From an uncultured Clostridia bacterium (GTDB taxonomy: Bacteria > Bacillota > Clostridia > UBA1381 > UMGS1253): a stretch of DNA of 64,000 bases. The stretch is from the NCBI GenBank assembly GCA_934456295.1, contig CAKSHB010000001.1, positions 174 through 64,173 of the forward strand, in the 5' to 3' direction. The notes under the pieces are model-generated. The model ran no database searches. It worked only from the letters and a program-made list of their open reading frames with translations, and was not told the DNA's origin. The position numbers and the translations under genes were made by a program. Of the stretch, positions 584-52,045 are shown one piece after another. Positions within the stretch are counted from its first letter, which is position 1. Every line of letters begins with the position of its first letter.

Positions 584-592
584 TGAAAAACT

Positions 593-1033: not shown

Positions 1034-1043
1034 GCGGTGATAT

Positions 1044-6608: not shown

Positions 6609-6643
6609 ACTTACGGTAAAAATCCGTATAAGGAGAGGCACAC

Positions 6644-8020: not shown

Positions 8021-8051
8021 AAATATACCTGCGAGAGGGGAAAGTGCTGTT

Positions 8052-9041: not shown

Positions 9042-9193
9042 GGCATATTGTGGCGTGCATTTTCCGATGCACATTCATGAAAGACAGTGTGAGAGCTTTT
9101 TTCATACAAAATTAAAGCGCCGCAAAAAATTCGTTTTCGGCGAAACGGCGGCGCAAAAAACCTCCTTTATTTTTATGCTGCGCAAAAGGAGAT

Positions 9194-11697: not shown

Positions 11698-11765
11698 CGC
11701 CTTGCGGCGGGTCTGCATAATATGTATGGCAAATATATTAAGCGGATCTGCGGAGGTGTTGTTAT

Positions 11766-16263: not shown

Positions 16264-18618
16264 TCAGGCAAAAACCTCTTTTGCAATATCGGCAGAACGC
16301 TTTGCGTCTTTTGCGTAATAATCGGCGCCGATTTTCATTGCATAACTCTCGGTCAGCACAGCGCCCCCAACCATTATTTTGCATGGAAGCTGTGCTTTGT
16401 GTATGGCGGCGATTGTCTGCTCCATAGAGCCGAGCGTGGTTGTCATAAGAGCGCTCAGCCCGACGAGAGGAGCCTTTTCTCTTCTGACCGTTTCCACAAC
16501 GGTTTCAATATCAACATCGCGTCCGAGGTCAAATACCGTATATCCGTAGTTCTCGAGTATTACTTTAACAATGTTTTTGCCGATGTCATGAATGTCGCCT
16601 TTGACTGTTGCAAGTACAATTTTGCCCATCTGAACGCTTTTTGTACCGCTTTCGGCAATCTTTTCCTTCACCGCCTCAAAAGCGCTCTGGGCGGCATTTG
16701 CGGCGCTGAGAAGCTGGGGCAGAAACAGCTTTCCGCACTCAAAATCCGCGCCGACGGAGTCAAGCGCCGGAATAAGCTCGTTATTTACAACGTCAAGCGC
16801 ATCACGGTTTTGAAGCTGCTGCATACACAGCGATTTTGCCTCGTCGGCAAGACCTTTGCGCACAGCCTCGCCCAGTGAATGCAGTGTTTGCACCGGTATT
16901 TTCGGCACATTTTCTGCCGCCGGAAAGCGCTTTATAAATTCTTCGGAGCCGATATCGATGTTTGCGAGTACGCGGTATGCACTTATTACGTCCATCATCG
17001 CTTTGGAATTTGGGTTGATAATCGGAAGATTAAGACCTGTGCCGAGCGCCAGCGACAGAAACGTGCTGTTGACAAGCTCACGGTTTGGCAAACCAAAGGA
17101 TATATTTGACACACCGAGCACGGTTTTCAGTCCGAGCTGTTCTTTGACCATGCGCACTGCCTTCAGCGTTTCAAATACCTCTGCCTGCTGTGCCGACGCT
17201 GTGAGTGTGAGGCAGTCAACGAAGATATCTTCACGTGCAATTCCGTATTTTTCTGCCTCGCCGAGTATGCGCCGTGCAATTTCGACGCGCTTTTCCGCTG
17301 TCATGGGGATACCGTTTTCATCGAGCGTCAGCGCAACGACGGCAGCGCCGTATTTTTTTACGACAGGAAGAAGTCTGTCCAAAACCTTCTGTTCGCCATT
17401 TACGGAATTTACTATAGCTTTGCCGTTATATACTCTCAGCGCACTTTCTACGGCATGCGGATTTGATGAGTCGATTTGCAGCGGCAAATCCGTCACGCTC
17501 TGAATTTTTTTTACAACCTCGGTAAGCATGCTTACCTCATCTATACCCGGCATGCCGACGTTGACATCAAGTATGTCCGCGCCTGCATCGGCTTGTTCAA
17601 CCGCCTGTGAAATGATGTAGTCAAAGTTGTTTTCTGAGAGAGCTTGTTTAAAGCGCTTTTTACCGGTCGGATTTATACGCTCGCCTATAACCGCAACGTT
17701 TTCAATATCAACTGTGCGTGTCGGCGTACATACGATACTGCGCTTTTTTTTCGGTACATGAACGGGAATTTTATCTTTAAAAGCCGCGCTTATTGCGGCG
17801 ATATACTCGGGCGTTGTGCCGCAGCAGCCTCCTGCCATGCATATGCCGAGTTTATGATATTTTTCCATAAGTTCGCCGAATTCCGCGGCGCTGATGTCAT
17901 AGCTGTTGTCGGCAGGGTTCGGAAGTCCCGCATTCGGTTTTACAAATACGGGAACATTGCTGCATGCGCAAAGCTTCTCGGCAAGCGGATATATTTCGCG
18001 CGGACCGAGAGAGCAGTTTATGCCTATTGCATCTGCGCCGAGTCCGCAAAGAACCGCTGCCATCGCCTCTATGCTGCATCCTGTGAAGGTGCGCCCGTTC
18101 TCCTCAAAGCTCATTGATACAAACAGCGGCAAATCGCTGTTTTCACGTGCCGCCAAAACTCCTGCTTTTACCTCATATAAATCCGTCATGGTTTCGAGTA
18201 CAATCAGCTCCGCACCGCTTGCTGTGCCTGCGCGCACAACCTCGCCGAACAGCTCGCATGCCTTTTCAAAGCGCAGTGTGCCCGACGGCTCAAGAAGCTC
18301 ACCCAAAGGACCTATGTCGAGTGCGGCTGCGGCGTTTGTACCGCTGCATGCATTTTTTGCCGCACGCACAGATGCGCCTATGACCTCGTTTACACTGTAG
18401 CCCGTATTTGCAAGTTTGAGTGCATTTGCGCCGAAGGTGTTTGCATATACGATGTCGGCGCCGCTTTCTATATAGGAACGATGAATACTTTCAATAAGCT
18501 GCGGATTGGTAATCGAGAGAAGCTCCGGCACAGCGCCAGGAGTCAGCCCGTTTTTTTGCAGCATTGTGCCCATTGCGCCGTCAAGAATTGTGTATTTATC
18601 GGGATTAAATTTAAACAT
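16264..18618 (-). CDS. metH: Cobalamin-dependent methionine synthase lacking the activation domain (Hcy-binding, pterin-binding and B12-binding modules)
   Basis: N-terminal homocysteine S-methyltransferase module (GCCGTTPEYI), a pterin-binding module, and the B12-binding DxHxxG motif (GDIHDIGKN). ATG at 18618 gives MFKFNPDKYTILDGAMGT. Confidence 0.92.
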   Translation of the reverse strand: MFKFNPDKYTILDGAMGTMLQKNGLTPGAVPELLSITNPQLIESIHRSYIESGADIVYANTFGANALKLANTGYSVNEVIGASVRAAKNACSGTNAAAALDIGPLGELLEPSGTLRFEKACELFGEVVRAGTASGAELIVLETMTDLYEVKAGVLAARENSDLPLFVSMSFEENGRTFTGCSIEAMAAVLCGLGADAIGINCSLGPREIYPLAEKLCACSNVPVFVKPNAGLPNPADNSYDISAAEFGELMEKYHKLGICMAGGCCGTTPEYIAAISAAFKDKIPVHVPKKKRSIVCTPTRTVDIENVAVIGERINPTGKKRFKQALSENNFDYIISQAVEQADAGADILDVNVGMPGIDEVSMLTEVVKKIQSVTDLPLQIDSSNPHAVESALRVYNGKAIVNSVNGEQKVLDRLLPVVKKYGAAVVALTLDENGIPMTAEKRVEIARRILGEAEKYGIAREDIFVDCLTLTASAQQAEVFETLKAVRMVKEQLGLKTVLGVSNISFGLPNRELVNSTFLSLALGTGLNLPIINPNSKAMMDVISAYRVLANIDIGSEEFIKRFPAAENVPKIPVQTLHSLGEAVRKGLADEAKSLCMQQLQNRDALDVVNNELIPALDSVGADFECGKLFLPQLLSAANAAQSAFEAVKEKIAESGTKSVQMGKIVLATVKGDIHDIGKNIVKVILENYGYTVFDLGRDVDIETVVETVRREKAPLVGLSALMTTTLGSMEQTIAAIHKAQLPCKIMVGGAVLTESYAMKIGADYYAKDAKRSADIAKEVFA

Positions 18619-18658
18619 GCGGACACAGTCCTTTCGTAAAAATATCGTTTTGTAAATG

Positions 18659-19342
18659 TTATTTGGTGCCGGCAGGGTTAAAACCGCACCGTTTAAAGTC
18701 ACATTTTTCACGCAGTACACAGTTTTCGCAGCCGGCAAGCTTTCCCTTTACAAAAGAAGGCGAAATACCGATTACGGCGGTTACCGATTTGCGCGGAGTC
18801 AGTATACTGCTCTGTGTGGCACAAAGACCGATTTTGCGCTCCGAGTCAAGAAGCCTCAGCAGAATATGCTGCTTTTCAATCGGGAAATCACCGTACCCGG
18901 GCGAAAAGCGGCTTGTCATGTATAAATTGCTGTGCGCGTATGTGTTGGCAAGCATTTTTGAAAAGTCATCGCATAATGTTTCAACTGCAGCAGTTGCGCA
19001 TGCGTCAAGTATCACGGGCATAAGTGCGTCGGTTGCCTGTGCGGCGCGGATTTTTGCCTCAACGCCGCTGCCTGCTGTCACGGCAGTGAGCACCGCTCTG
19101 TCACAGCCGTGCAGATGTGTATATATGTCATTTCCTTCAAGCAGACGCACTGTTTCCAGCTCTTCAAGCGAAAATTCATCATAAACGGCACGCGGAGTTA
19201 TGGCTGAAAGGACAATATCACAGGCTTGTCCGATTTTTGCATTAATTATTTCATCGGGCGAAGCAGGGCTGCGATAGCCAAGAAAGCGCATGACCTCATC
19301 TTTGTTTATAGTTTCGGGTTTTGGAAGTGTAAGCTTTTCCAT
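18659..19342 (-). CDS. Stand-alone methionine synthase reactivation (AdoMet-binding) domain protein
   Basis: A 227-aa ORF immediately upstream of metH. Its length and sequence style fit the C-terminal activation domain that is fused in E. coli MetH. Confidence 0.7.
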   Translation of the reverse strand: MEKLTLPKPETINKDEVMRFLGYRSPASPDEIINAKIGQACDIVLSAITPRAVYDEFSLEELETVRLLEGNDIYTHLHGCDRAVLTAVTAGSGVEAKIRAAQATDALMPVILDACATAAVETLCDDFSKMLANTYAHSNLYMTSRFSPGYGDFPIEKQHILLRLLDSERKIGLCATQSSILTPRKSVTAVIGISPSFVKGKLAGCENCVLREKCDFKRCGFNPAGTK

Positions 19343-39434: not shown

Positions 39435-40241
39435 ATGGAGAAAAATATATCCGTTTTGCTGGCAGACGACAGTGAGGAATTTGTAAAAACAGTGAAGGAT
39501 TATCTGGATTCACAGGAGGGGATTACGGTATCGGGTGTGGCACATGACGGACGCGAGGCGTTTGAAATGATAAAAGAAACAAAGCCCGATGTGGCACTGA
39601 TTGATATGGTTATGCCGCTTGTGGACGGATTGGGTGTTTTAAAGAAGATAAAAAATACAAATCTGGAGAAAGAACCGGTTTGTATGATGTTCTCGGGAGT
39701 CGGTCAGGGCAGAATGACACAGATGGCAATGGAGCTTGGTGCACAGTATTTTATTTTAAAGCCGTTTGAGCTTGATTCGCTTGCCGAAAGAATACGTGAG
39801 TTCGGCAACGGGGGAGAAGTCGGCGAGGCATGTGCAAATTCCTCGGAAAACAGTGACAAGGGCGCTGACAGCGCAAAATGCTACAGTGAGGATGAGCTGG
39901 AAATGGCGGTTACGGGTATAATTCATGAAATCGGAATACCTGCCCATGTAAAGGGATATCCGCTTATAAGAAGTGCAATACTTATGGCGATAAACGATAT
40001 GGAAATTATAAACCACATAACAAAACAGCTTTATCCCGATTTGGCGAAAATGTATAAGACAACACCGAGCCGTGTTGAGCGCGCAATAAGACATGCAATT
40101 GAGCTTGCATGGGACAGGGGAAACAGAGAGGTTATGGAGACGATGTTCGGCTATACGATTTCGCCGGATAAAGGAAAGCCGACAAACAGCGAATTTATCG
40201 CGATGATTGCCGATAATATGAGGCTGAGAATAAAGAGATAA
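39435..40241 (+). CDS. spo0A: Sporulation master regulator Spo0A
   Basis: A receiver domain (ISVLLADD..., [14 protein letters not shown]) plus the Spo0A-specific C-terminal domain ([22 protein letters not shown]...[17 protein letters not shown]...[13 protein letters not shown]). Confidence 0.95.
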
Positions 40242-40310: not shown

Positions 40311-40629
40311 GTAATATAAAAACGATTATTATGCATACTGTAAACGAAACCAGTGAAAAAAGGAATATATACAGTGAAAACATGAAACAGATATGTACAG
40401 TGTTTTCATTTGCGCCCATCATTGTTATGCCGAAATACCCTGTAAGCAGCAGAAAAATAAGCATTACAGAGGCAAAAATGCCGGACAGCATAATGCATTT
40501 CTGCCGGAAACGCCGGGCTGATTTTTGTTTTGCAAGAAAATGCAGACATTGGCGTTTTTTGCTGCATTTGCTGCATGAGGTATAATTGCTTGAAATACCT
40601 GTTATTTCCGTATATTTTTTATGTATCAT
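40282..40629 (-). CDS. Hypothetical small membrane protein
   Basis: A 115-aa ORF with a Cys-rich basic N-terminus and about 3 hydrophobic segments. I do not recognise a family, and the region is AT-rich. Confidence 0.4.
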   Translation of the reverse strand: MIHKKYTEITGISSNYTSCSKCSKKRQCLHFLAKQKSARRFRQKCIMLSGIFASVMLIFLLLTGYFGITMMGANENTVHICFMFSLYIFLFSLVSFTVCIIIVFILQIIKRKITR

Positions 40630-40664
40630 ATGTATAAACCCTCCGATTAATCAGGCATAAGTGT

Positions 40665-40800
40665 GTGTTCGGTAACCGCTATTGTAAATATTATAATGCA
40701 ACAGCGAAGGCGGCAAAAAGTCGCCGAAGAATTGCTTTTCAATATTTACATCAATTACAAACACGCAGGTGTTTGGTAACCGCTATTGTAAATATTATAA
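40665..40800 (+). repeat. 32-bp direct repeat pair (31/32 identical) with an inverted half-site between the copies
   Basis: gtgtt(c/t)ggtaaccgctattgtaaatattataa at 40665-40696 and 40769-40800. An inverted copy of tgtaaatatt sits at 40741-40750. Confidence 0.8.
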
Positions 40801-40942
40801 CATGCAAAGCATATATTTGCAACTATTATTTAACTATAAAATTAAATATAAATTTGATTATATAATTAATTTATAAAATAATGTAAGATTATAATGTGTG
40901 AGAGTTTAATATATACGGCTGCAAGGAGGAGTTGATACAGGC

Positions 40943-41119
40943 ATGGACTTTATAATAAAAAAACCCACAAGCTCAAACAGGACGATACGTATGCCGGATA
41001 CGCTTATTGAAAAAATAACCGAGATTGCCTGCGAAAAGGATATATCGTTTAATCAGGTTGTTGTTCAGTGCTGTGAGTATGCGATTGAAAATCTGCCGAA
41101 GGAGAAAGATGAAAAATAA
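40943..41119 (+). CDS. Small ribbon-helix-helix (Arc/CopG-like) DNA-binding protein
   Basis: A 58-aa ORF below the ORF-track cutoff, with AAGGAGGAG 9 nt upstream. RTIRMPDTLIEKITEIACEKDISFNQVVVQCCEYAIENL fits the beta-strand/helix/helix pattern. Confidence 0.6.
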   Translation: MDFIIKKPTSSNRTIRMPDTLIEKITEIACEKDISFNQVVVQCCEYAIENLPKEKDEK

Positions 41120-41128
41120 TTCGGAAGC

Positions 41129-41161
41129 AAAAAACCTGTCGGATATCCGACAGGTTTTTTA
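41129..41161. terminator. Bidirectional intrinsic terminator
   Basis: aaaaacctgtcgg-atat-ccgacaggtttttt is a perfect stem flanked by A and T runs. Confidence 0.8.
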
Positions 41162-41207
41162 GGCGTTTTAAGAAGTAAATTGCTATTGTGTTCAAATTAG
41201 CATCATT

Positions 41208-41299
41208 TGGCGGAGAGAGAGGGATTCGAACCCTCGGAACGCTATTAACGCTCACACGATTTCCAATCGTGCGCCTTAGACCGACTCAGCCATCTCTCC
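41208..41299 (-). tRNA. tRNA-Ser (anticodon GGA), CCA encoded
   Basis: The reverse complement folds as a cloverleaf: acceptor GGAGAGA/UCUCUCC, anticodon stem CACGA/UCGUG with loop UUGGAAA, a long variable arm, and T-arm GAGGG-UUCGAAU-CCCUC. It ends in GCCA. Confidence 0.9.
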
Positions 41300-41477
41300 G
41301 TATAAATATGCGATTATAAACAACGCTTATTATTTTAACACAACAAATATTATTTTGTCAATAAAAAATTGATTTATGTGCAAAAATGTGTGATGAAACG
41401 CTGTGTTAAAATTGCCCTGTGCAATTTCTTCCGTTGTTATAAGCCCTATAGGATTGAAACAGTGGGGTTGAAATTAC

Positions 41478-41506
41478 TTGACAGTAATTTCTTCCATTGG
41501 TATAAT
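41478..41506 (+). promoter_or_regulatory. Consensus sigma-A promoter of the SLH/DUF4430/ECF operon
   Basis: TTGACA (41478-41483), a 17-nt spacer, then TATAAT (41501-41506). Confidence 0.65.
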
Positions 41507-41546
41507 AAAAGTATAAAAACAGTTATTTTTGAAGGAGCGACCTTTT

Positions 41547-43151
41547 TTGAAAAAAATTATAAGTGTATTTTTATCTATATGCATAATATTTTCGGTAATT
41601 ACGGTATATGCAAATGAAAACACTGATGCGGCAATCAGCGACACGGTTTCATATCTGATTAATTTGCAGCCGAATCCGAGTGTAGGCTCAATCGGGGGCG
41701 AGTGGCTCGTTATAGGTATTGCGCGCAGCGGAGAAGAAGCGCCGCAGGGGTATTTTGAGCGTTATTATGACAATGTGTGCAGATATGTCAGTGAAAAAAA
41801 CGGTATTTTGCACGAAAAAAAGTATACGGAATATTCGCGGCTGATAATTGCGCTGACGGCTATCGGGAAAAATCCCGCCGATGTATGCGGATTTAATCTG
41901 CTGACAGCGCTCGGAGATTATGAAAAAGTCGTATGGCAAGGGCTGAACGGACCGATTTTCGCGCTTATTGCGCTTGACAGCAGAAATTATGAAATGCCTG
42001 TGTGTGCCGACGGCAAGCTTGCGGCGACACGGCAGATGTATGTGGATTGCATATTATCGCGGCAGGGAGATGACGGCGGCTTTGCGCTTGCGGACGGCGG
42101 AGCCTCAGATGTGGATATAACGGCGATGGCGCTTCAGGCGCTCTCTCGTTATACTAACGATGAAAAAACGAAAAATGCGGTCAGCCGCGCGCTGGAATTT
42201 TTGAGCAGTGTGCAGAATGACAGGGGCGGATTTTCGAGCGGCGGAAGTGAGAATGCGGAAAGCTGCGCACAGGTACTCACAGCACTTTCGGCTCTGGGCA
42301 TACCGGCAGATGACAGCCGTTTTGTGAAAAACGGAAAAACCGTGCTTGATGCACTGATGTCATTTTATTCGCCCAAGAACGGCTTTATGCACACAAAAGA
42401 CAACAGCGGTGTGAGTGCGATGTCGTCGGAACAGGGGTTATATGCTCTGGCGGCATACAGGCGCATGGTGCGCGGTGAAAACAGCCTGTATAGCATGACG
42501 GACGTATCGGTACAGCAGGGCGGCGGCGAAAGCTTTGGGCTGTCGGGAAAAGACGAGCGGATTAAGCATGTCGGCATTGTGCATGAGAACAAAACGTTTT
42601 CGGACATATCGGAAAATGTGTACAGGAAGGAAATAGAGGAACTTGCAAAGAGAAACGTGGTCAGCGGAAAAGGGCAGGATATGTTTGTGCCCGATGATAC
42701 GATGACGCGAGCCGAATTTGCGGCGATAACGGTAAACGCGCTCGGACTTGACACGGATTTTGAAAAAATATTTGAAGATGTCGGGCAGGAGGCATGGTAC
42801 GGCTCATATATTGCGGCGGCATACAGAGCAGGGATTGTAAACGGTGTATCGGATACGCTTTTTGAGCCGGAAAAGACTATTACGCGCATGGAGGCGTCGG
42901 CGATGGTTGCACGTGCGGCGGCGTTTTGCGGCATGAATACGGAAATCGGTGAATTGGCGGCGCGCGATGTGCTTGCTGTGTTTGATGATGCATATGACAT
43001 CAGCGCATGGGCAGTCGGACCGTTTGCTTTCTGTATTATAAACGGCATGATACCTGATGACGAGATGACGGCAGAGCCTGCGCGTTTTGTGACAAGGTGC
43101 GAAATTGCACACATGGTTTATACGCTGATGGACAGGGCAAAGCTGTTATAG
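41547..43151 (+). CDS. Secreted alpha/alpha-toroid (prenyltransferase/squalene-cyclase-like repeat) protein with three C-terminal SLH domains
   Basis: TTG start 9 nt after GAAGGAG. Signal peptide KKIISVFLSICIIFSVITVYA. Repeats carry the QGDDGGF, VQNDRGGFSSGGS and PKNGFMH motifs. Three SLH-like repeats follow (FSDISENVYRKEIEELAKRNVVSG, FEDVGQEAWYGSYIAAAYRAGIVNG, FDDAYDISAWAVGPFAFCIINGMI). Confidence 0.8.
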   Translation: MKKIISVFLSICIIFSVITVYANENTDAAISDTVSYLINLQPNPSVGSIGGEWLVIGIARSGEEAPQGYFERYYDNVCRYVSEKNGILHEKKYTEYSRLIIALTAIGKNPADVCGFNLLTALGDYEKVVWQGLNGPIFALIALDSRNYEMPVCADGKLAATRQMYVDCILSRQGDDGGFALADGGASDVDITAMALQALSRYTNDEKTKNAVSRALEFLSSVQNDRGGFSSGGSENAESCAQVLTALSALGIPADDSRFVKNGKTVLDALMSFYSPKNGFMHTKDNSGVSAMSSEQGLYALAAYRRMVRGENSLYSMTDVSVQQGGGESFGLSGKDERIKHVGIVHENKTFSDISENVYRKEIEELAKRNVVSGKGQDMFVPDDTMTRAEFAAITVNALGLDTDFEKIFEDVGQEAWYGSYIAAAYRAGIVNGVSDTLFEPEKTITRMEASAMVARAAAFCGMNTEIGELAARDVLAVFDDAYDISAWAVGPFAFCIINGMIPDDEMTAEPARFVTRCEIAHMVYTLMDRAKLL

Positions 43152-43170
43152 CATATGGGAGTGGGCTTGC

Positions 43171-43959
43171 ATGATGAAACATAAGAATAAAATAATTGTG
43201 GTGGCAGTTACACTGATATTGCTTGCGGCGGCATTTTGGTTTGGCGGAAATGCTCCCGGGACAGGCGGCACGGCAGATATGGGTACGGCGGAAAATGCCG
43301 GCAGTGCGGCAAGTACGCAGAGCAGTGACGCTGCGGTTCTGCCTATGCCTGAGGGAGAAAGACCGGTAGTTGACGGGGAAGCGGAGGAGGTGCCGAACGA
43401 AACCGCCGAGCCGGAAAAAGACGGGCAAAGCTCTGAGGCGAAGGATACACATGATAATACGGCAGTTTCGGAAAGCAATGAACAGCAGAACAATGACGGC
43501 GGACAAAACACACCGCCGACGGATAAAAAGCCGTCATGCACGATTTCGGTAAGCTGCAAAACAATACTTGACAATATGCAGTATCTGGCGGAGAATAAAC
43601 ATTCTCTCGTACCGCCCGACGGCGTGATACTTTCGCCCGTTACAGCGGAGTTTACTGACGGCGAGAGTGTATTTAACGTACTTTCGCGCGAGCTGAAACG
43701 CAGAAAGATACATCTGGAGTTTTCATATACGCCGATATACAGCAGTGTGTATATTGAGGGCATAAACAATCTGTATGAATTTGACTGCGGCGAATTATCG
43801 GGCTGGATGTATTCGGTCAACGGCGTATTTCCGAATTACGGCTGTTCGCAGTATAAACTGAGGGACGGCGACAGAGTTGAATGGGTGTATACATGCGACC
43901 TCGGGCGCGATGTCGGCGGAGGGGATGCGGCATATAAGCCAAAAGAGGAGCAGCAGTGA
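43171..43959 (+). CDS. Membrane-anchored DUF4430-domain protein (transcobalamin beta-domain-like)
   Basis: An N-terminal TM segment (IIVVAVTLILLAAAFWF), a ~100-aa acidic low-complexity linker, and a C-terminal DUF4430-like domain (CTISVSCKTILDN...GELSGWMYSVNGVFPNYGCSQYKLRDGDRVEWVYTCDLGRDVG). Confidence 0.8.
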   Translation: MMKHKNKIIVVAVTLILLAAAFWFGGNAPGTGGTADMGTAENAGSAASTQSSDAAVLPMPEGERPVVDGEAEEVPNETAEPEKDGQSSEAKDTHDNTAVSESNEQQNNDGGQNTPPTDKKPSCTISVSCKTILDNMQYLAENKHSLVPPDGVILSPVTAEFTDGESVFNVLSRELKRRKIHLEFSYTPIYSSVYIEGINNLYEFDCGELSGWMYSVNGVFPNYGCSQYKLRDGDRVEWVYTCDLGRDVGGGDAAYKPKEEQQ

Positions 43960-44831
43960 TGAATGGGTTTAAAAGCTATCACCCGTCGGTTAATTTTATA
44001 TTTTTTGCGTCTGTAATCGCGTTTTCGATGATTTTGATGCACCCTGTATGCTTATGCATATCGTTTGCGTCGGGTTTTGCGTATTCTGTTATGCTTAACG
44101 GCAAAAATGCGGTAAAGTTTAACCTGACGGTTCTTGTGCCGATGATGCTTGCGGCGGCGCTTATAAATGTCATGTTTAACCATGAGGGCGCAACAATACT
44201 GGCATATCTTCCGGACGAAAATCCGCTCACGCTCGAATCGGTCTTTTACGGTCTTGCGGGTGCGGCGGTTCTTGTTGCGGTCATATGCTGGTTTTCATGT
44301 TTTAACGCTGTTATGACAAGCGATAAGATTATATATTTATTCGGCAGGATTGCGCCGTCGCTGTCGCTTATACTTTCTATGACACTGCGCTTTGTGCCGC
44401 GGTTTAAATCACAGATGAAAAAAATTTTAGGGTCGCAGCGATGCATAGGGCGCGATGTGACAAACGGGAGCATAATTGCGCGCGCAAAGCACGGGATAAC
44501 AATTTTGTCAATTATGATTACATGGGCGCTGGAAAATGCCGTAGAAACCGCAGACAGCATGAAAAGCCGAGGTTACGGTCTTTCGGGCAGAAGCGCCTTT
44601 TCAAATTTCAAGCTTACGGGACGCGATATTGGGCTGATTATTTTTATATGCGCGGCTGATGTCTTAATGGCTGCCGCATGTATGTACGGAACCGCCGGCT
44701 TCAGCTATTTTCCGGTTACGGACGGGCTGAATATGAGCGTATACGGTATAGGAGCGGCTGCCGCGTATGCGGCATTGTGTGTATTGCCGGCGGTTATTGA
44801 GGTGCGGGAGGTTTGCAGATGGGGGAAATAA
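43956..44831 (+). CDS. ecfT: ECF transporter transmembrane (T) component, CbiQ/EcfT family
   Basis: A polytopic protein with coupling-helix Arg-Gly motifs (QRCIGRD, MKSRGYG). Its start overlaps the upstream stop, and its stop overlaps the downstream ATPase gene. Confidence 0.8.
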   Translation: MMNGFKSYHPSVNFIFFASVIAFSMILMHPVCLCISFASGFAYSVMLNGKNAVKFNLTVLVPMMLAAALINVMFNHEGATILAYLPDENPLTLESVFYGLAGAAVLVAVICWFSCFNAVMTSDKIIYLFGRIAPSLSLILSMTLRFVPRFKSQMKKILGSQRCIGRDVTNGSIIARAKHGITILSIMITWALENAVETADSMKSRGYGLSGRSAFSNFKLTGRDIGLIIFICAADVLMAAACMYGTAGFSYFPVTDGLNMSVYGIGAAAAYAALCVLPAVIEVREVCRWGK

Positions 44832-47563
44832 GGACGGAAGATAAAATACTTAAAATACAAAAATTTACATTCACATACCCCATGAGCAAAATGCCTGCGC
44901 TTGAAAATGTATCATTTTCGGCAGACAGGGGCGAGTTTGTGACGCTGTGCGGCAAATCGGGCTGCGGCAAATCGACGCTTCTGCGCTGCATAAAGCCATC
45001 GCTTGCGCCTCATGGGGAAAAATCGGGTACGATTTATTTTGACGGGCGCGATACAGGCTCACTCGACCTGAGGGCTCAGAGCGAAAAAATCGGATTTGTC
45101 ATGCAAAGCCCCGACAATCAGATTGTTACGGATAAGGTGTGGCATGAGCTGGCATTCGGGCTTGAAAGCCTTGGGTGTAATGCGGAGCAAATACGTGCAA
45201 GAGTGGCTGAAATGGCATCATTTTTCGGCATACAGACATGGTTTCACAAAAAGACGGAGGAGCTGTCGGGCGGACAGAAGCAAATTTTAAATCTTGCATC
45301 TGTTATGGTAATGCAGCCGTCGCTTCTGATACTTGATGAACCCACGAGCCAGCTTGACTCGATTGCGGCAGAGGAGTTTCTGTCGGCTCTCGTGAAGGTC
45401 AACCGCGAGCTGGGCGTAAGCGTGATACTTACGGAGCACAGGCTTGAGGAGGCTCTGGCGGTTACGGACAGGGTTGTTGTTCTCGATGAAGGAAAAATTA
45501 TCGCCGATGGCAGTGTGAGAGAGACCGGCGATATATTAAGACATCGGCGCCATGAAATGTTTTCGGCGTTTCCGACGGCGATGCGCGTATATGCCGGAGC
45601 AGAAAGCTGCTTGCCGTGTCCCGTAACTGTGCGCGAGGGCAGAGCATGGCTCAAAGAAACGGCTGCACGCACGGGAGTCGACATGCAGCGTGTTGCGCAC
45701 GGTGTAAAAAATGAAAATAAAGGCGAAACGGCGGCGGAGCTTGACGGGGTATGGTTTCGGTACAAAAAAGATTTGCCCGATGTGCTGCGCGGAGTTTCGG
45801 TTAAAATGTATACAGGCGAGATTTTTGCGGTTGTCGGCGGAAACGGAGCCGGAAAATCGACAATGCTGTCAGCGTTAAGCACGGCAATAAAGCCGCAGAG
45901 GGGAAGTGTCCGTCTGTTCGGCAGGTGTGCCGAACAGACGGAGAAGAAATTTGACGGACTTCTCGGCGTGCTGCCCCAAAATCCGCAGACGCTTTTTGTA
46001 AAGAAAACCGTGGAGCTTGATTTATATGAGATGCTTTCGGAAAAGGATATATCAAAAGAAGAAAAAGCTGATATGGTTGAAGAGGCGCTTTATAAATGCG
46101 AGCTTACACAGCTTCGCGGCAGGCACCCGTATGATTTGTCGGGCGGTGAGGCACAGCGTGCCGCACTTGCAAAAATATTGCTTTTGAAGCCTCGGATTTT
46201 GCTGCTTGATGAGCCGACAAAAGGGCTTGACACACATTTTAAGAAAAAGCTGGCGCGTATATTATACAAACTGAAAGAAGAAGGAACTGCAATCGTAATG
46301 GTGTCGCACGATATAGAGTTTTGTGCGCGGTATGCCGACCGCTGCGCGATGTTTTTTGACGGCGGAATTGTCGGAATGGGTGAGGCGCGTGAGTTTTTTT
46401 CGGGCAAAAGCTTTTATACCACGGCTGCAAACCGCATGGCGCGCGGAATTGTTGACGGCGCTGTGCTTGATGAGGATATAATTGCGGCTTTGGGAGGCGA
46501 TATCGGTCGGGGCATGTATGACGATGGAGAGGATTTTGGTTCATCGGATTTTAAACGGACGGATAAAGACGGCAGTGTGCCCGATAAAAAAAGAAACGCC
46601 TATAGAGCCGAATGTGCGGACAATCAAAAGGAAAAGCTGAAAAACGGCGAAAAGAAAAACAGGCTGTCTGCAAAAAGAATTATCTTCGGCATATTTTTTG
46701 CCGTATGCTTTGCTCTTACTATGATTTTTTTTCATAACAAGTACGGCGATGTCAGAATGTATGCGGTGCAGCTTTTTGAGATAATGCTTTGCGCGCTCAG
46801 TCTGAATTGCTTTATTGTTCAAAAACCGATTTCGGTAAAGATACGGACAATGCATAAGGAGAAAAATGCTGTGCCGAAGGCGGCAGCCTTTGCCGCAGCG
46901 ACACTTCTGGCGGCAGCGGCAACGCTGTGGGCAGGGATATATTTTTTTGATGACAGAAAATACTATTTTATAAGCATGCTGATTATGTTCGAAATTGCCC
47001 TGCCGTTTTTTGTGACATTTGAAAAACGGCGTTACGGCGCACGTGAACTTGTGGTGATAAGTGTGCTGTGTGCGATTGCGGTTGCAGGGCGCACAGCGTT
47101 TTACATGCTGCCGCAGTTTAAGCCTGTGGCGGCTGTTGTAATACTGACGGGCGTATGCTTCGGCGCACAGGCGGGAGCGCTTACAGGTGCAATTTCGGCG
47201 TTTGTTTCAAATTTTTTCTTCACACAGGGGCCGTGGACGCCGTGGCAGATGTTTTCCTTCGGGGTGATAGGCTTTTTTGCCGGAGCGCTGTTTCACAGCG
47301 GACTCATACGGACAGGCAAAGGCTCACTGTGCATATTCGGTGCGGCAATGTGCATTTTCATATACGGCGGAATTATGAACCCTGCATCGGTGATTATGTG
47401 GCAGGGAAAGCCGAGCGCGGAAATGTTTGCGCTGGCATATTTGCAGGCAATACCGTTTGATGTGATACACAGTGCGGCGACGGCGTTTTTCCTTTGGTTT
47501 GCGTCGGGTCCGATGATTGAAAAGCTTGAGCGCATAAAGGTAAAATACGGCATCTTGGAGTAG
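44819..47563 (+). CDS. Fused ECF ATPase-ATPase-membrane (S-component-like) protein
   Basis: Two ABC modules (Walker A GKSGCGKST and GGNGAGKST, signatures LSGGQKQ and LSGGEAQR), a charged linker, then a ~280-aa domain with about 9-10 hydrophobic segments. The last six or so resemble an ECF S component (RELVVISVLCAIAVAGRTAFY...). ATG 44819 follows GGGAGG. Confidence 0.8.
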   Translation: MGEIRTEDKILKIQKFTFTYPMSKMPALENVSFSADRGEFVTLCGKSGCGKSTLLRCIKPSLAPHGEKSGTIYFDGRDTGSLDLRAQSEKIGFVMQSPDNQIVTDKVWHELAFGLESLGCNAEQIRARVAEMASFFGIQTWFHKKTEELSGGQKQILNLASVMVMQPSLLILDEPTSQLDSIAAEEFLSALVKVNRELGVSVILTEHRLEEALAVTDRVVVLDEGKIIADGSVRETGDILRHRRHEMFSAFPTAMRVYAGAESCLPCPVTVREGRAWLKETAARTGVDMQRVAHGVKNENKGETAAELDGVWFRYKKDLPDVLRGVSVKMYTGEIFAVVGGNGAGKSTMLSALSTAIKPQRGSVRLFGRCAEQTEKKFDGLLGVLPQNPQTLFVKKTVELDLYEMLSEKDISKEEKADMVEEALYKCELTQLRGRHPYDLSGGEAQRAALAKILLLKPRILLLDEPTKGLDTHFKKKLARILYKLKEEGTAIVMVSHDIEFCARYADRCAMFFDGGIVGMGEAREFFSGKSFYTTAANRMARGIVDGAVLDEDIIAALGGDIGRGMYDDGEDFGSSDFKRTDKDGSVPDKKRNAYRAECADNQKEKLKNGEKKNRLSAKRIIFGIFFAVCFALTMIFFHNKYGDVRMYAVQLFEIMLCALSLNCFIVQKPISVKIRTMHKEKNAVPKAAAFAAATLLAAAATLWAGIYFFDDRKYYFISMLIMFEIALPFFVTFEKRRYGARELVVISVLCAIAVAGRTAFYMLPQFKPVAAVVILTGVCFGAQAGALTGAISAFVSNFFFTQGPWTPWQMFSFGVIGFFAGALFHSGLIRTGKGSLCIFGAAMCIFIYGGIMNPASVIMWQGKPSAEMFALAYLQAIPFDVIHSAATAFFLWFASGPMIEKLERIKVKYGILE

Positions 47564-47578
47564 AGAGAGCAAAAGGCG

Positions 47579-48247
47579 TTACTGCTGAAAGAAGTGCATT
47601 ACGGCAACGGCGAGCAATATCAGCCCGGGTGTAAGCGCACTTATACGCGAGCTGAAAATTTTTATCCGCGAAAAATGCTTGCCAAGCATGGTTCCCGTAT
47701 AGAGCAGAAGAACCTGAAATATGCCGACAAGGAGCGGAACCGTGTACGGCGCCGCGCCCGATGTTCCGAAGCCGATACAGCTGCATACGGAGTCTAATGA
47801 GAGCATGAACGCGAGATATACTGACTCAAAAAAGTCGATATTAAGCGAACGGTCGAAATCGCAGTTTACGGGACGTTTTATTATTTTTACGCTGAGGTAT
47901 ATCGAACGCAGGTCAAACTCAAATGTTCGCTCAGCGCTTAATGCTTTTTCCGTTTTTTCGGAGAGGGCATTTTTTTTGTGCGGCGAAAAATCGGAAAATG
48001 AGTCGGCAATCATCCATATCCCCAGAAGGGAAAGCATCAAAAAGCTTATTATACGAGAAATATTTTCAGGCAAAAACTGTGAAAGTGCATTTCCGAAAAA
48101 TGTACCGGCGGCGGACATGAGAGCCGAAATTATAAAAATGACTGCCAGAGAGGATAAGGGCAGACGTATTTTTTTTATTCCGTAGCTGAAGCCGACTGCC
48201 GCGGCATCAAGACTTAGTGAAAGTGCGAGAAGAATGAGTGTATACAT
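47579..48247 (-). CDS. ytaF: Sporulation membrane protein YtaF (MntP-like fold)
   Basis: MYTLILLALSLSLDAAAVGFSYGIKKIRLP... and the duplicated half (FMLSLDSVCSCIGFG) match the YtaF/MntP pattern. Confidence 0.75.
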   Translation of the reverse strand: MYTLILLALSLSLDAAAVGFSYGIKKIRLPLSSLAVIFIISALMSAAGTFFGNALSQFLPENISRIISFLMLSLLGIWMIADSFSDFSPHKKNALSEKTEKALSAERTFEFDLRSIYLSVKIIKRPVNCDFDRSLNIDFFESVYLAFMLSLDSVCSCIGFGTSGAAPYTVPLLVGIFQVLLLYTGTMLGKHFSRIKIFSSRISALTPGLILLAVAVMHFFQQ

Positions 48248-48419
48248 GTGTCGGGACACGCTCCTCATATACTGATTTTGCGGTTTTTTTAAAATTTGCT
48301 CCGCAGTAAAAATATATGACCGCTATCTCAGATACGTGAGTTTCGGCGCCTTGGAAATGATATTGTTAAAGATATGTCACATGTAATAAAAATGAAACAA
48401 TTAAAAATGGAAAAAGGGA

Positions 48420-48448
48420 TTGACTTTTATGCATTAAGTGAGTATACT
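48420..48448 (+). promoter_or_regulatory. Sigma-A promoter of the ABC exporter pair
   Basis: TTGACT, a 17-nt spacer, then TATACT. Confidence 0.55.
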
Positions 48449-48501
48449 ACCCGTGAATTGGAAAATTTTTCGGCCGGAATTAATTTTAAGGAGGCGGAAT
48501 A

Positions 48502-50268
48502 ATGACACAGATAAAGTGGATTTTTGAAAACATGAAGGGGAGCAGATGGAAGTTTTATATGGGGACATTTATAAATCTTTTCATCGTACTTCCGCTTGCC
48601 GTTGTGCCTGCCATGATTATTACCGTATTTGTGGATCAGGTTTTTACAAACGGCGATATGTCAAACGCCTATCTTCTGATGGCGGCATATGCAGGCATAC
48701 ATCTGCTGCGCTCTGTAATGCAGTACACCCAGGCTGTCATGCTTGACAGCGCTTCGGCGGATATTCTGGCGCGTTTCAGAACAAAACTCTATGAGAAGCT
48801 TCAGGCGCTTTCACCTTCATTTTATGGCACAAACCGCACGGGCGACATCATGATGCGTCTGACGGGCGACCTTGAGGCAATGCGCCATTTTGTTGCATGG
48901 GTAATGTGTGCGGCAGGCTACTGTGTGCTGCAGTTTATTGCGGCGCTTGTCGTATTTTATTCAACAAATGCAATTCTTGCAACAGTGCTGCTTGTTGTTT
49001 CGCCGTTTATGGCGTATCTTGTTATTAAAATGCGCAAGGTGTCATCGCCGATGTATGTGTACCTGCGTGAAGTAAACAGCCGCTTAAACGCCGCCGTTCA
49101 GGAAAATATTGCCGGAAACAGAGTTGTGAAGGCGTTTGTGAGAGAGAAGTTTGAATTTGATAAATTCAGCAAGCTTAATAATGAGTATCGCGACGCGGCA
49201 ACTTCTGCCGCAAAGGTATGGGCAAAGTTCGGTCCGATATTCAATGCTCTGGGCAATGGCGTAATGATTACAACCTTCATAGCCGGCGGCATAATGGTAA
49301 TATATAATCAGCTCACGGTAGGCGAATTTTTGCTTTTTTACAACCTGAACTGGCTTATAAACTCATCAATGTCGATTGCGGGTATTGTAATAAACGATTC
49401 GCAGCGTTTCTTTTCGTCCACACAGAAGGTTATGCAGCTCTATTATGCGCGCTGCGACATAAAGAACGGCGAAAATCCGTATGTGCCGAAAGAGGACGAA
49501 AACGAAAATTCGGGCATGGTGGAATTTGAAAATGTAAATTTCAGCTATGACAAAAATCATGTGCTTGAGGATATAACGCTTACGGCAAAGCCGGGGCAGA
49601 CGATAGGCATAATGGGTCCGACGGGCTCGGGCAAATCGACGCTTGCCATGCTTATGGCAAGGTTTGCCGATGTCACGGGCGGCAGTGTGAAAATTGACGG
49701 AGTCGATGTGCGCGACTACGATTTGGATGCGCTTCGCAAAAAAATCGGCATATCAATGCAGGACGTATTTCTGTTTTCAAACACAATTGACGCAAATATT
49801 GCATACAGTGACCCCGATATGGACACGGAGCGTGTTGTCGAATATGCAAAAATGGCTGACGCGGACGGCTTTATACGGCGCATGCCGGACGGGTACGACA
49901 CGATTGTGGGCGAACGCGGAGTAGGTCTGTCGGGCGGACAGAAGCAGCGAATTGCGCTTGCACGCGCGCTGGCACATGAATCGCCGATTGTTATTCTGGA
50001 CGATACAACCTCGGCGGTGGATATGGAAACGGAAAAATACATACAGTCACAGCTTGCGTCACGCAAAGGCAAGCATACGACATTCATAATTGCGCAGCGT
50101 ATATCGTCGGTTAAAGATGCGGACAAAATTTTTATAATTGAGAACGGAAGGATTTCCGAAAGCGGAAGTCACAGGGAGCTGCTTGCGAAAAAGGGATATT
50201 ATTATGATATCTACTGTTTGCAGCAGGGATATGAGAACAGCAAAGAGGAGGTGCGTACAAATGGCTGA
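48502..50268 (+). CDS. ABC exporter, fused permease/ATPase (heterodimer subunit 1)
   Basis: A six-TM N-terminal domain, Walker A GPTGSGKST, signature LSGGQKQR and Walker B ILDDTTS. Confidence 0.9.
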   Translation: MTQIKWIFENMKGSRWKFYMGTFINLFIVLPLAVVPAMIITVFVDQVFTNGDMSNAYLLMAAYAGIHLLRSVMQYTQAVMLDSASADILARFRTKLYEKLQALSPSFYGTNRTGDIMMRLTGDLEAMRHFVAWVMCAAGYCVLQFIAALVVFYSTNAILATVLLVVSPFMAYLVIKMRKVSSPMYVYLREVNSRLNAAVQENIAGNRVVKAFVREKFEFDKFSKLNNEYRDAATSAAKVWAKFGPIFNALGNGVMITTFIAGGIMVIYNQLTVGEFLLFYNLNWLINSSMSIAGIVINDSQRFFSSTQKVMQLYYARCDIKNGENPYVPKEDENENSGMVEFENVNFSYDKNHVLEDITLTAKPGQTIGIMGPTGSGKSTLAMLMARFADVTGGSVKIDGVDVRDYDLDALRKKIGISMQDVFLFSNTIDANIAYSDPDMDTERVVEYAKMADADGFIRRMPDGYDTIVGERGVGLSGGQKQRIALARALAHESPIVILDDTTSAVDMETEKYIQSQLASRKGKHTTFIIAQRISSVKDADKIFIIENGRISESGSHRELLAKKGYYYDIYCLQQGYENSKEEVRTNG

Positions 50269-52045
50269 AGCAGCGGCAAAGCAGAAACGCAACAAATATG
50301 ACGTTGATGAAAAGCTTGACACACCGTTTAATATCAAGCACCTGACAAGGAGTGCAAAGTATGTAAAAAAGCATGCAAAAGATATGCTTTTTGCGCTCGT
50401 GTTTAGTATTATTGCAATAGTTTCGGGCTTGGCATTTCCGTCGATACTTCGTGTTATTACCGATGATTTTATACCTTCAAAAAATGTGTGGGGCATTATC
50501 GGAGCAGGTGCGGTCGGATTTGCGCTGGTGGGCATAATTATGTTTTCCGAGCGCAGGCGCGGAATTATCAGCAACCGCACGGGGCAGCAGATTGTGTCGG
50601 AAATGCGTGCGGATTTGTTTGAACATCTGCAAAAGCTTCCGTTTGACTATTTTGATTCGCGTCCACATGGGAAAATTCTGGTGCGCGTTGTGAACTATGT
50701 AAACTCCGTGGCAGACTTTTTTTCAAACGGACTTATAAATATTGCGCTTGAGCTATTGAGCCTTGTATTTATAATATTTTTCATGCTGTGGACAAATGTG
50801 GAGCTTTCGCTTGTTGTAATGGCGGGGCTTGTGCCTTTTGTGATATATGTGCTGCTCATAAAAAACGCACAGCGCAAGGCAAGCCGCACATTTTCAAACA
50901 AAAACTCAAACATGAACGCATACTATCAGGAAAGTATTGACGGCATGAAGGTTACGCAGTCCTTTGACCGACAGGAGGTAAATTACGGCATTGCGTACAA
51001 AATGGCGGACGAATGTTCAAAATGGTTTGTCAAACGTACACTTTTTGCACAGTCGATGACCCCTTCGGCGGCAATATTGTCGGCGGTTGTTACAGCGGCA
51101 ATTTACCTTATAGGAATAGGCACACATGGGATAAGCGTCGGCGTAATAATAGCTATGGCGGCATACTGCGGACGTTTCTGGCAGCCTATACAGAATTTGG
51201 GCAGCCTGTACAACAGCGTTATTGATACGGCGGCATATCTTGAGAGAATTTTTGAGATGATGGACGAAAAGGTTGATATTGATGATAAAGAAGGGGCATA
51301 TGAACTCCCCGATATAAAGGGTGAAGTTAAATTTGAGCATGTGTTCTTTGAGTATGAGAAAGATGTGCCGATTTTGAAAGATGTGACATTTACGGCAAAG
51401 GCAGGACAGTCAATTGCGCTTGTCGGTCCCACGGGCGCCGGCAAAACAACGGTGGTAAACCTGCTTGCGCGTTTTTACGACATAAAATCCGGCTCAATAA
51501 CGATTGACGGAAACAGCATATATGATGTGACGATAAATTCCCTGCGCCGTCAGATGGGAATGATGCTTCAGGATACGTTTATATTTTCGGGCACAATTAT
51601 GGAAAATATAAAGTACGGCAGACTTGACGCAACCGATGAGGAGGCGATGGAGGCGGCAAAAATTGTTTCGGCACATGATTTTATAATGGAACTGCCCGAC
51701 GGGTACAACACTGTTGTGACGGAGCGCGGAGGCTCTCTGTCGGCAGGACAGCGCCAGCTCATAAGCTTTGCGCGCACACTTCTTGCCGACCCGAAAGTAC
51801 TGATACTTGATGAGGCAACATCGGCAATCGACACAAAAACAGAGCTGCTTGTTCAAAAGGGACTGCAAAATCTTTTAAAGGGCAGAACGTCGTTTATAAT
51901 TGCACACAGACTTTCAACCATTAAAAACTGTGACAGAATAATGTATATAGCGCAGAAAAATATTGCCGAATCCGGCAACCACCGGCAGCTGCTTGATGCG
52001 CACGGCTTATATTACGAGCTTTATACATCTCAGCTCACTGAATAG
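50261..52045 (+). CDS. ABC exporter, fused permease/ATPase (heterodimer subunit 2)
   Basis: ATG 50261 overlaps the upstream stop and follows AGAGGAGGTG. Walker A GPTGAGKTT, signature LSAGQRQL and Walker B ILDEATS. Confidence 0.9.
   Translation: MAEAAAKQKRNKYDVDEKLDTPFNIKHLTRSAKYVKKHAKDMLFALVFSIIAIVSGLAFPSILRVITDDFIPSKNVWGIIGAGAVGFALVGIIMFSERRRGIISNRTGQQIVSEMRADLFEHLQKLPFDYFDSRPHGKILVRVVNYVNSVADFFSNGLINIALELLSLVFIIFFMLWTNVELSLVVMAGLVPFVIYVLLIKNAQRKASRTFSNKNSNMNAYYQESIDGMKVTQSFDRQEVNYGIAYKMADECSKWFVKRTLFAQSMTPSAAILSAVVTAAIYLIGIGTHGISVGVIIAMAAYCGRFWQPIQNLGSLYNSVIDTAAYLERIFEMMDEKVDIDDKEGAYELPDIKGEVKFEHVFFEYEKDVPILKDVTFTAKAGQSIALVGPTGAGKTTVVNLLARFYDIKSGSITIDGNSIYDVTINSLRRQMGMMLQDTFIFSGTIMENIKYGRLDATDEEAMEAAKIVSAHDFIMELPDGYNTVVTERGGSLSAGQRQLISFARTLLADPKVLILDEATSAIDTKTELLVQKGLQNLLKGRTSFIIAHRLSTIKNCDRIMYIAQKNIAESGNHRQLLDAHGLYYELYTSQLTE

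Follow-up and report, generated by a model that had tools for sequence, protein, structure and literature searches.

A four-gene locus in an uncultured Clostridia bacterium predicted to encode a corrinoid ECF importer with a split, transcobalamin-like capture device

The stretch of DNA studied here (the window) comprises 64,000 nucleotides (nt) of contig CAKSHB010000001.1 (positions 174 to 64,173 of the forward strand; assembly GCA_934456295.1) from an uncultured Clostridia bacterium of the UMGS1253 lineage, and between positions 41547 and 47563 it carries an operon of four co-directional plus-strand genes for two extracytoplasmic proteins and an energy-coupling factor (ECF) importer. A first-pass annotation, made from the sequence alone, had proposed that the two extracytoplasmic proteins form a split, transcobalamin-like device for capturing vitamin B12. 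All four open reading frames (ORFs) are present and stand, as that annotation described, behind a consensus sigma-70-type promoter, the sole perfect match to the consensus within the 8 kb scanned (Table 1). Gene 1 is likely to start at the TTG at 41547, which has a GGAG 8 nt ahead of it and agrees with the 534-amino-acid (aa) gene called on L001, a metagenome contig identical to this one. Genes 1 and 2 are separated by 19 nt, gene 3 starts at the stop codon of gene 2 with 4 nt in common, and its end shares about 13-19 nt with the start of gene 4. Only about 35-40 nt lie between the promoter and the start codon of gene 1, which leaves no room for a riboswitch, and an Rfam scan of this leader was empty even at E<=10, showing neither a cobalamin riboswitch, whose absence the first-pass annotation had also recorded, nor any other element. 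The only Rfam match, both in the whole window at the gathering threshold and in positions 40600-48600 at E<=10, was a tRNA-Ser; no riboswitch was found in either scan. With a consensus promoter and no riboswitch, the operon is probably expressed from that promoter and not repressed by B12.

Table 1. Coordinates of the operon features within the window.
Feature	Position	Strand	Description
Sigma-70-type promoter	41478..41506	+	TTGACA, 17 nt spacer, TG-extended TATAAT; 12/12 consensus match
Gene 1	41547..43151 (alternative start 41529)	+	Secreted, wall-anchored alpha/alpha-toroid protein, 534 aa
Gene 1, toroid domain	41610..42506	+	Residues about 22-320; AlphaFold2, Foldseek, Pfam, hhalign
Gene 1, SLH cell-wall anchor	42594..43148	+	Three-repeat region; Pfam SLH, family profile
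Gene 2	43171..43959	+	Membrane-tethered DUF4430 protein, 262 aa
Gene 2, N-terminal transmembrane anchor	43192..43248	+	Single; residues 8-26; hydropathy scan
Gene 2, acidic low-complexity tether	43261..43545	+	Residues 31-125; 20 D/E versus 5 K/R; isoelectric point 4.05
Gene 2, DUF4430/SLBB beta-grasp domain	43543..43920	+	Pfam core residues 164-241 (43660-43893)
Gene 3	43956..44831 (alternative start 43959)	+	EcfT (T component)
Gene 4	44813..47563 (alternative start 44819)	+	EcfA-EcfA'-S fusion
Gene 4, N-terminal part	44813..46402	+	Fused EcfA and EcfA' ATPases, residues about 14-237 and 310-530
Gene 4, four extra hydrophobic helices	46679..47020	+	Residues 623-736, between ATPases and S core; hydropathy scan
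Gene 4, C-terminal part	47024..47563	+	CbrT-like ECF S-component core, residues about 738-916

The product of gene 1 has a signal-peptide-like N-terminus (MKKIISVFLSICIIFSVITVYA), hydrophobic and ending in VYA, and it combines this with an SLH repeat module, as in SLH-anchored cell-wall proteins. Pfam scored two SLH repeats (86 bits, E 1.4e-24), and the profile of the gene 1 family spans the whole three-repeat SLH domain of Bacillus anthracis Sap (6bt4/3pyw). The N-terminal region matched Prenyltrans (PF00432) over about 90 residues with 34.9-35.1 bits, against a cutoff of 26.5, and an AlphaFold2 (AF2) model of it (predicted local-distance difference test score, pLDDT, 92.5; predicted template-modelling score, pTM, 0.90) adopted an alpha/alpha-toroid fold, so that the proposed wall-tethered toroid is borne out. 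In a Foldseek search of the PDB the top query template-modelling scores (TMq) belonged to transcobalamin (4zrp_B and 7qbg_C, 0.60) and intrinsic factor (0.57), and the homology to transcobalamin relatives is transitive (see below) rather than direct; the fold search is consistent with the transcobalamin idea and cannot separate transcobalamin from farnesyltransferase beta.

Searches of PDB sequences with the gene 1 toroid and with its family profile returned squalene-hopene cyclase, drimenyl-diphosphate synthase and alpha-2-macroglobulin repeats, and no transcobalamin. As gene 1 thus finds its best sequence matches, in Pfam and in the PDB, among Prenyltrans and terpene-cyclase repeats, its product might instead be an extracellular enzyme of the prenyltransferase or terpene-cyclase type that acts on isoprenoids of the wall or membrane, its linkage to a transporter being incidental. 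We consider this extremely improbable: the matches are confined to the repeat motif, no class II DXDD motif was seen on inspection of the gene 1 translation, the protein is secreted and held by its SLH repeats away from prenyl-diphosphate substrates, it is homologous to a fused family of the Cobalamin_bind type, and at 57 of 61 loci its gene keeps company with those for DUF4430 and the ECF components, as described below.

Gene 2 encodes, as first described, a membrane-anchored protein with a long acidic linker (95 residues) and a C-terminal DUF4430 domain, which matched PF14478 with 68.9 bits against a cutoff of 23.8. According to two published accounts (PMC4350170, PMC1796856), the DUF4430/SLBB family takes in transcobalamin's C-terminal domain; a search of PDB sequences with gene 2 and its family profile did not reach the transcobalamin beta domain. 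The DUF4430 domain is 62-72% identical across 80 related loci. The family alignment contains three near-invariant cysteines (DUF4430 domain positions C5, C101 and C118), possibly engaged in a disulfide, and most relatives carry a conserved proline-rich motif in the tether, TDPVPEGKPxPxEPQ, possibly a wall-spanning segment. One protein of 380 aa (P0122) joins a spermine/spermidine synthase domain (PF01564) to a DUF4430 domain with 63% identity to gene 2, an odd architecture or possibly an artefact of gene calling.

Gene 3 matched the CbiQ/EcfT family (PF02361) with 33.3 bits, against a cutoff of 25, and its hydropathy profile shows multiple hydrophobic segments, in keeping with its earlier assignment as EcfT. 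Gene 4 contains two ABC_tran stretches; it passed the TIGR04520 model ECF_ATPase_1 (343.7 bits, cutoff 315) and fell just under the cutoff of TIGR04521 (315 versus 330). Searches with the hidden Markov models (HMMs) of Pfam and NCBIfam thus bear out the calls of toroid repeats, SLH, DUF4430, EcfT and the ATPases. The first-pass annotation had read gene 4 as an EcfA-EcfA'-membrane fusion; the fusion is confirmed, and the membrane part, which follows a basic/acidic linker at residues 560-620 and the four extra helices, is now recognized as an S component (PF07155, 37 bits versus a cutoff of 26.7; PF12822, 30.2 versus 30.7). In PDB sequences this S domain had a single match, 6fnp_A (CbrT; E 5.5e-7), with residues 4-177 of the 182 residues of CbrT aligned, and no other S component was found even at E<=10. 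The 6FNP entry is ECF-CbrT of Lactobacillus delbrueckii, for which transport of cobalamin and cobinamide has been shown experimentally (Santos et al. 2018, PMC5997447).

The Pfam title of the gene 3 family ('Cobalt transport protein CbiQ') and the high scores of NCBIfam cbiO-type models on gene 4 might suggest an ECF transporter for cobalt or nickel, resembling CbiMNQO, but we regard this reading as very unlikely. Gene 3 falls far below the cobalt-CbiQ equivalog TIGR02454 (19 bits versus 111.8), the operon has neither CbiM nor CbiN, the S domain matches CbrT and not CbiM, and the two large extracellular proteins of ligand-binding type have no counterpart in metal ECF systems.

The CbrT match extends to the gene neighbourhood. 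In L. delbrueckii the cluster order is nrdJ-cbrS-cbrT-pduO (PMC5997447), and in loci of this type, retrieved with the CbrT sequence as query, we found cbrS (L092 4541-4990) to encode a secreted DUF4430 protein of 149 aa (Pfam 3.7e-20) with a lysine-rich linker, lying between nrdJ, for a B12-dependent ribonucleotide reductase, and cbrT-pduO, the latter for a cobalamin adenosyltransferase. Its similarity to gene 2 is weak but significant. As cbrS is a DUF4430 protein, the pairing of DUF4430 with CbrT is already present in the one ECF B12 system with experimental proof, in which cbrS stands immediately upstream of cbrT much as gene 2 stands upstream of its transporter. The two systems differ in that CbrT is a group-II component sharing a general ECF module encoded elsewhere, whereas the module in the window is dedicated and its A-A'-S part is one polypeptide with four extra helices. 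In addition, the L. delbrueckii cluster has no toroid protein, and cbrS has a signal peptide of the cleavable type and a basic linker where that of gene 2 is acidic.

In order to place the operon among its relatives, we turned to other genomes, in which the toroid protein family comprises at least 4,387 clusters and the DUF4430 protein family at least 7,900; a scan with one genome per species found toroid relatives in at least 556 genomes. From such genomes we retrieved 80 loci, which include Oscillospiraceae, Peptococcaceae, Sedimentibacter, Anaerovorax, Vallitalea, Paenibacillus and Cohnella, and counted gene order in the 61 that extend 6.3 kb or more beyond the toroid gene on its downstream side. 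The order toroid, DUF4430, EcfT, EcfAA', EcfS on one strand was found in 57 of these, ranging over Clostridia, Peptococcaceae, Paenibacillus and Cohnella, so that the co-occurrence of toroid-SLH, DUF4430 and ECF genes, for which the first-pass annotation had asked for a count, is nearly complete in these loci; operons of this kind occur very widely in the Firmicutes. One Oscillospiraceae locus (L012) has a second, partial copy (DUF4430, EcfT, EcfAA') at 6-1548 (-), divergent from and upstream of the main copy at 6001-11928 (+). The A-A'-S polypeptide is a single called gene in both relatives with gene calls, Congzhengia and Cohnella, and the majority of the 80 loci have 300-450 nt between their EcfAA' and EcfS matches, a spacing consistent with the same fusion. 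As in the window, EcfA, EcfA' and S are one polypeptide, with the four additional hydrophobic helices between ATPases and S core, at L003 11453-14119 and L005 11503-14004.

We scanned 20 distinct loci (280 kb) at the Rfam gathering thresholds. They gave 21 matches to cis-regulatory RNAs, all of them cobalamin riboswitches (RF00174); the 280 kb yielded no second family of cis-regulatory RNA, and thus no riboswitch for another metabolite before these clusters. In 12 of the 15 loci whose operon start was sampled, a plus-strand RF00174 element lies ahead of the cluster with only co-directional genes between. It is directly before the toroid gene in five loci (L023, L028, L064, L079 and L080), 900 nt upstream in L038, and before upstream paralogue genes that run into the toroid gene in six (L003, L005, L007, L018, L040 and L051). 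Of the other three loci, L008 has riboswitches on neighbouring units only, none was found in L014, and of L021 only 323 nt upstream were sampled. The remaining five of the 20 loci stand outside the count of 15, as their giant upstream ORF runs off the retrieved sequence. These riboswitches make a strong case, from comparative sequence analysis, for a B12 link of the toroid/DUF4430/ECF family.

In several loci, between two and four cobalamin riboswitches fall within 13 kb, at 683-854, 2025-2224, 5575-5787 and 12035-12217 in L079, at 498-687 and 4799-4990 in L038, and at 3474-3609 and 4386-4610 in L051; the toroid/DUF4430/ECF cluster thus lies within larger B12-regulated neighbourhoods. In relatives, a giant secreted SLH protein (1,480-2,090 aa) is encoded between the riboswitch and the toroid gene and directly adjoins both. 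These giant upstream genes lie at L018 1014-5867, L003 2357-7951, L005 1653-7919 and L007 1414-5862. The window has no giant upstream gene, and its copy of the operon is a minority variant, in which the riboswitch and the giant upstream paralogue were both lost or were never present.

On whether genes 1 and 2 encode the halves of a transcobalamin-like binder, relatives supply the decisive evidence. At many loci an upstream paralogue carries the toroid and DUF4430 domains on one chain. That of L018 (Flavonifractor porci), directly behind the riboswitch, has 1617 aa with Ig-like domains, a toroid, Big_2, DUF4430 and three SLH repeats; the giant proteins of L003 and L005 contain cadherin-like and DUF4430 domains, and that of L007 has given a DUF4430 match only so far. 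A more compact form, of 893 aa (L031), consists of a toroid, a short Pro/Thr/Ser linker, DUF4430 and SLH repeats, and further single-chain forms are P0241-P0262. By the Rosetta-stone argument, such natural fusions argue that the products of genes 1 and 2 act together. Among 29 aligned homologues of the L031-type fusion, DUF4430 was detected in 28, SLH in 26 and Cobalamin_bind (PF01122) in 12, and members of the fused family reach 28 to 35.1 bits for PF01122 against a curated cutoff of 25. Five bacterial SLH-anchored proteins (P0291, P0272, P0300, P0269 and P0284), some of them also with DUF4430, were observed above the threshold of PF01122, a family titled 'Eukaryotic cobalamin-binding protein'. 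These proteins are full-length bacterial homologues of transcobalamin, which agrees with a proposal made in 2007 that the family reached animals from Firmicutes.

A profile of the fused family matched intrinsic factor and haptocorrin weakly in the PDB (E 0.03-0.14), its other matches being SLH proteins and one weaker, unrelated entry (2k4j, E 0.31). In the AF2 model of a compact fusion, P0244 (pLDDT 82.9, pTM 0.48), both domains fold well and the linker is disordered, and its top 15 PDB matches were intrinsic factor, transcobalamin and haptocorrin, with E-values of 3e-10 to 6e-9 over 454-481 columns covering both domains; unrelated folds appeared from 2.6e-3, and terpene cyclases at about 1e-2 to 2e-2. 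Its DUF4430 part gave a target TM-score (TMt) of 0.72 against the isolated transcobalamin beta domain, 5no0. The gene 1 family was compared with the fused toroid-DUF4430 family by hhalign over the toroid columns only, because the full-length comparison is inflated by the SLH repeats that both share, and the two matched with 99.8% probability (E 7e-28, 237 columns). From this homology, and from the Cobalamin_bind and transcobalamin matches of the fused members, we place gene 1 in the transcobalamin alpha-domain lineage, within whose bacterial branch it is divergent.

The vertebrate carriers transcobalamin, intrinsic factor and haptocorrin (PF01122 with PF14478) belong to the closest known systems: they hold B12 between an alpha6/alpha6 toroid and a beta-grasp DUF4430 domain, and the bacterial single-chain relatives pass PF01122 and have them as top matches in the fold search. 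The vertebrate proteins are soluble, consist of one chain each and enter cells by receptor-mediated endocytosis, whereas the halves in the window are separate polypeptides, anchored to wall and membrane and feeding an ABC-type importer, and gene 1 is too divergent for a direct match to PF01122. Sequence comparison and modelling support the view that genes 1 and 2 encode the alpha-like and beta-like halves of a transcobalamin-type binder.

Taking these results together, we propose that the operon encodes a dedicated corrinoid ECF importer with a two-protein extracellular capture device, a reading to which we give a probability of roughly 0.68. A corrinoid is the most likely substrate on the sequence evidence, and the interpretation as a whole is supported by comparative genomics and structure prediction. 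The importer would be dedicated and group-I-like, and its substrate would be vitamin B12, cobinamide or related cobamides. In the proposed mechanism, the transcobalamin-alpha-like toroid of gene 1 would be held on the cell wall through its SLH repeats, and the transcobalamin-beta-like DUF4430 domain of gene 2 would be carried on its acidic tether of ~95 residues from the membrane. The corrinoid would be caught outside the membrane, most likely sandwiched between both domains as in transcobalamin, and then passed to the CbrT-like S domain, itself covalently fused to both ATPases; the S-ATPase fusion and EcfT would move it into the cell, where it may serve enzymes including the MetH whose gene lies elsewhere in the window. 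By analogy with transcobalamin, a two-piece clamp is a plausible mechanism for the capture step. We infer that the two halves close around a single ligand, which corrinoid this is, and that it is handed to the S domain, the last from gene linkage and from analogy with the surface relays of Bacteroides.

Several observations weigh against the proposal. In the fold search with the gene 1 toroid, the E-values of farnesyltransferase beta and drimenyl-diphosphate synthase equal or better those of transcobalamin. Gene 1 itself has no match to Cobalamin_bind (PF01122) at E<=1, matching Prenyltrans/SQHop_cyclase instead, and among 24 members of its family only three have PF01122 matches, all weak (best E 0.015). 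The P0244 model does not adopt the closed arrangement of transcobalamin (root-mean-square deviation about 12 A, TMt 0.37-0.50, pTM 0.48); as its linker is disordered and the orientation of its domains is not fixed, the model speaks neither for nor against the clamp itself. The operon in the window has no riboswitch, so that its link to B12 rests on orthology. Finally, the only genetically studied system of this architecture, lsa1836-1840 of L. sakei, has been reported as a heme importer (10.1101/864751).

In that study (Verplaetse et al. 2019, 10.1101/864751), a split alpha/beta transcobalamin-like heterodimer clamp feeding an ECF transporter was modelled, and a deletion mutant was found to accumulate less heme, as judged with a heme sensor and 57Fe; the authors concluded that the locus is a heme ECF system and left cobalamin open. 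Judged by the published description, the L. sakei locus shares all five functions with the window operon (an S component, fused A-A', T, and secreted beta-like and alpha-like proteins), apparently in the same order from lsa1840 to lsa1836. It differs in that its S component is separate, where that of the window is fused to the ATPases, and in that its description mentions neither an SLH anchor nor a membrane tether. The window operon might by extension import heme, or tetrapyrroles generally, with the toroid and DUF4430 proteins scavenging heme outside the cell as proposed for Lsa1839 and Lsa1840, and both the docking of heme into the modelled heterodimer (10.1101/864751) and the missing B12 riboswitch would suit that explanation. 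We nevertheless judge it unlikely. The substrate reported for L. sakei is heme, whereas at 12 of the 15 informative loci the orthologues of genes 1-4 are under cobalamin riboswitches, and among the S components in the PDB only CbrT, which is B12-specific, matches the S domain. The DUF4430-CbrT pair of L. delbrueckii, moreover, lies between genes for a B12-dependent ribonucleotide reductase and a cobalamin adenosyltransferase, and the L. sakei evidence consists of whole-cell accumulation and docking rather than binding or transport by purified components.

The mode of capture can also be read differently. Corrinoid uptake could proceed without a two-piece clamp, through independent binders acting in relay (wall, membrane tether, S domain), or DUF4430 alone could bind the ligand while the toroid has another role at the wall. 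The isolated beta domain of transcobalamin does bind cyanocobalamin alone (PDB 5np4), the L. delbrueckii cluster pairs cbrS with CbrT and has no toroid gene, the model of a fused relative lacks a closed interface, and the extra DUF4430-bearing giant proteins in many loci suggest capture in several steps. On the other side, toroid and DUF4430 form a single chain in many relatives, their genes adjoin in 57 of 61 loci, and all the eukaryotic homologues are single chains that sandwich one B12 (PMC1796856). We therefore find capture without a clamp rather improbable.

With a corrinoid importer and a two-protein capture device as the preferred interpretation, the question of its novelty arises. The first-pass annotation knew of no experimental characterization of the four-gene arrangement; that claim did not stand, as the arrangement was predicted in 2007 (PMC1796856) and has been modelled and genetically tested in L. 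sakei (10.1101/864751). Burroughs, Balaji, Iyer and Aravind (2007, PMC1796856) define a transcobalamin-like clade of bacterial SLBB domains, describe its members as having signal peptides, surface anchors and fusions to alpha/alpha toroids, and report operons in which CbiO-like ATPases and CbiQ-like membrane proteins are accompanied by another SLBB protein, a paralogue of the first; they note that the proteins tend to occur in organisms without B12 synthesis, and predict B12 scavenging by such operons. That work predates the recognition of ECF transporters, and the part of its text available does not mention an SLH-anchored stand-alone toroid, an S component, an A-A'-S fusion or riboswitch control. 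Literature searches on bacterial transcobalamin homologues with an S-layer, or on ECF with transcobalamin and riboswitch, gave nothing beyond the works cited here. Our interpretation is thus essentially a rediscovery of a type of system already described. The window operon is distinct by the SLH wall anchor of its alpha half, the acidic membrane tether of its beta half, the A-A'-S fusion through four helices and the lack of a riboswitch, which are variations on a known system.

Functional analogues are found in the BtuG, BtuH and BtuJ proteins of Bacteroides (PMC8941943, PMC13616437), which are likewise transporter-linked surface binders, under B12 riboswitches, in an extracellular relay. Their folds are unrelated (a beta-propeller; DUF4465; and, for the globular domain of BtuH, 'no known structural homologs'), and they serve a TonB-dependent transporter of the Gram-negative outer membrane. 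We had considered BtuH as a DUF4430 protein, and rejected this because its B12-binding domain is without known structural homologues according to the paper.

Elsewhere in the window, a MetH gene at 16264-18738 (-) encodes both B12-binding domains, in agreement with the B12-dependent MetH of the first-pass annotation. The protein has 824 aa and four domains (homocysteine methyltransferase, pterin-binding, B12-binding_2 and B12-binding); a C-terminal reactivation domain was not detected in it. The window also contains a Spo0A gene (39435-40241), which places the organism among the spore-forming Firmicutes. Immediately upstream of the operon, the opposite strand carries a tRNA-Ser(GGA) gene (41208-41299, -) with its own promoter-like site at 41361-41332 (-; 11/12); this site and the operon promoter stand back to back within ~150 nt. 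Downstream are a convergent gene for an MntP-type manganese efflux protein (47579-48268, -) and an overlapping pair of ABC exporter genes (ABC_membrane with ABC_tran; 48502-52045, +); no link of either to the operon is evident.

A covalently tethered S subunit is unusual for the ECF class, whose presumed mechanism has that subunit topple or be released. If our reading is correct, the S component, fused through four extra helices, could not dissociate or exchange, which would bear on the toppling/expulsion model of ECF transport. A wider picture, which we offer only tentatively, is of a wall-spanning, extracellular corrinoid relay of Gram-positive bacteria, made up of the alpha half, the beta half and, in relatives, the giant toroid/DUF4430/SLH paralogues under riboswitch control, in which two anchored proteins would form the sandwich transiently and the ligand would be handed to an S component fused to its ATPases. 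The riboswitches, the homology to CbrT, the identification of cbrS as a DUF4430 protein and the single-chain homologues with Cobalamin_bind bear on the conflict between heme and B12 for the L. sakei system, and equally on the proposed bacterial origin of animal transcobalamin; the family, if the reading is right, would be a living bacterial form of the ancestor of that protein. How corrinoids are acquired shapes competition within anaerobic communities, and in the Firmicutes the machinery for their uptake is much less well understood than in Bacteroides or Escherichia coli. The toroid/DUF4430/ECF family is large, ecologically relevant and biochemically neglected.

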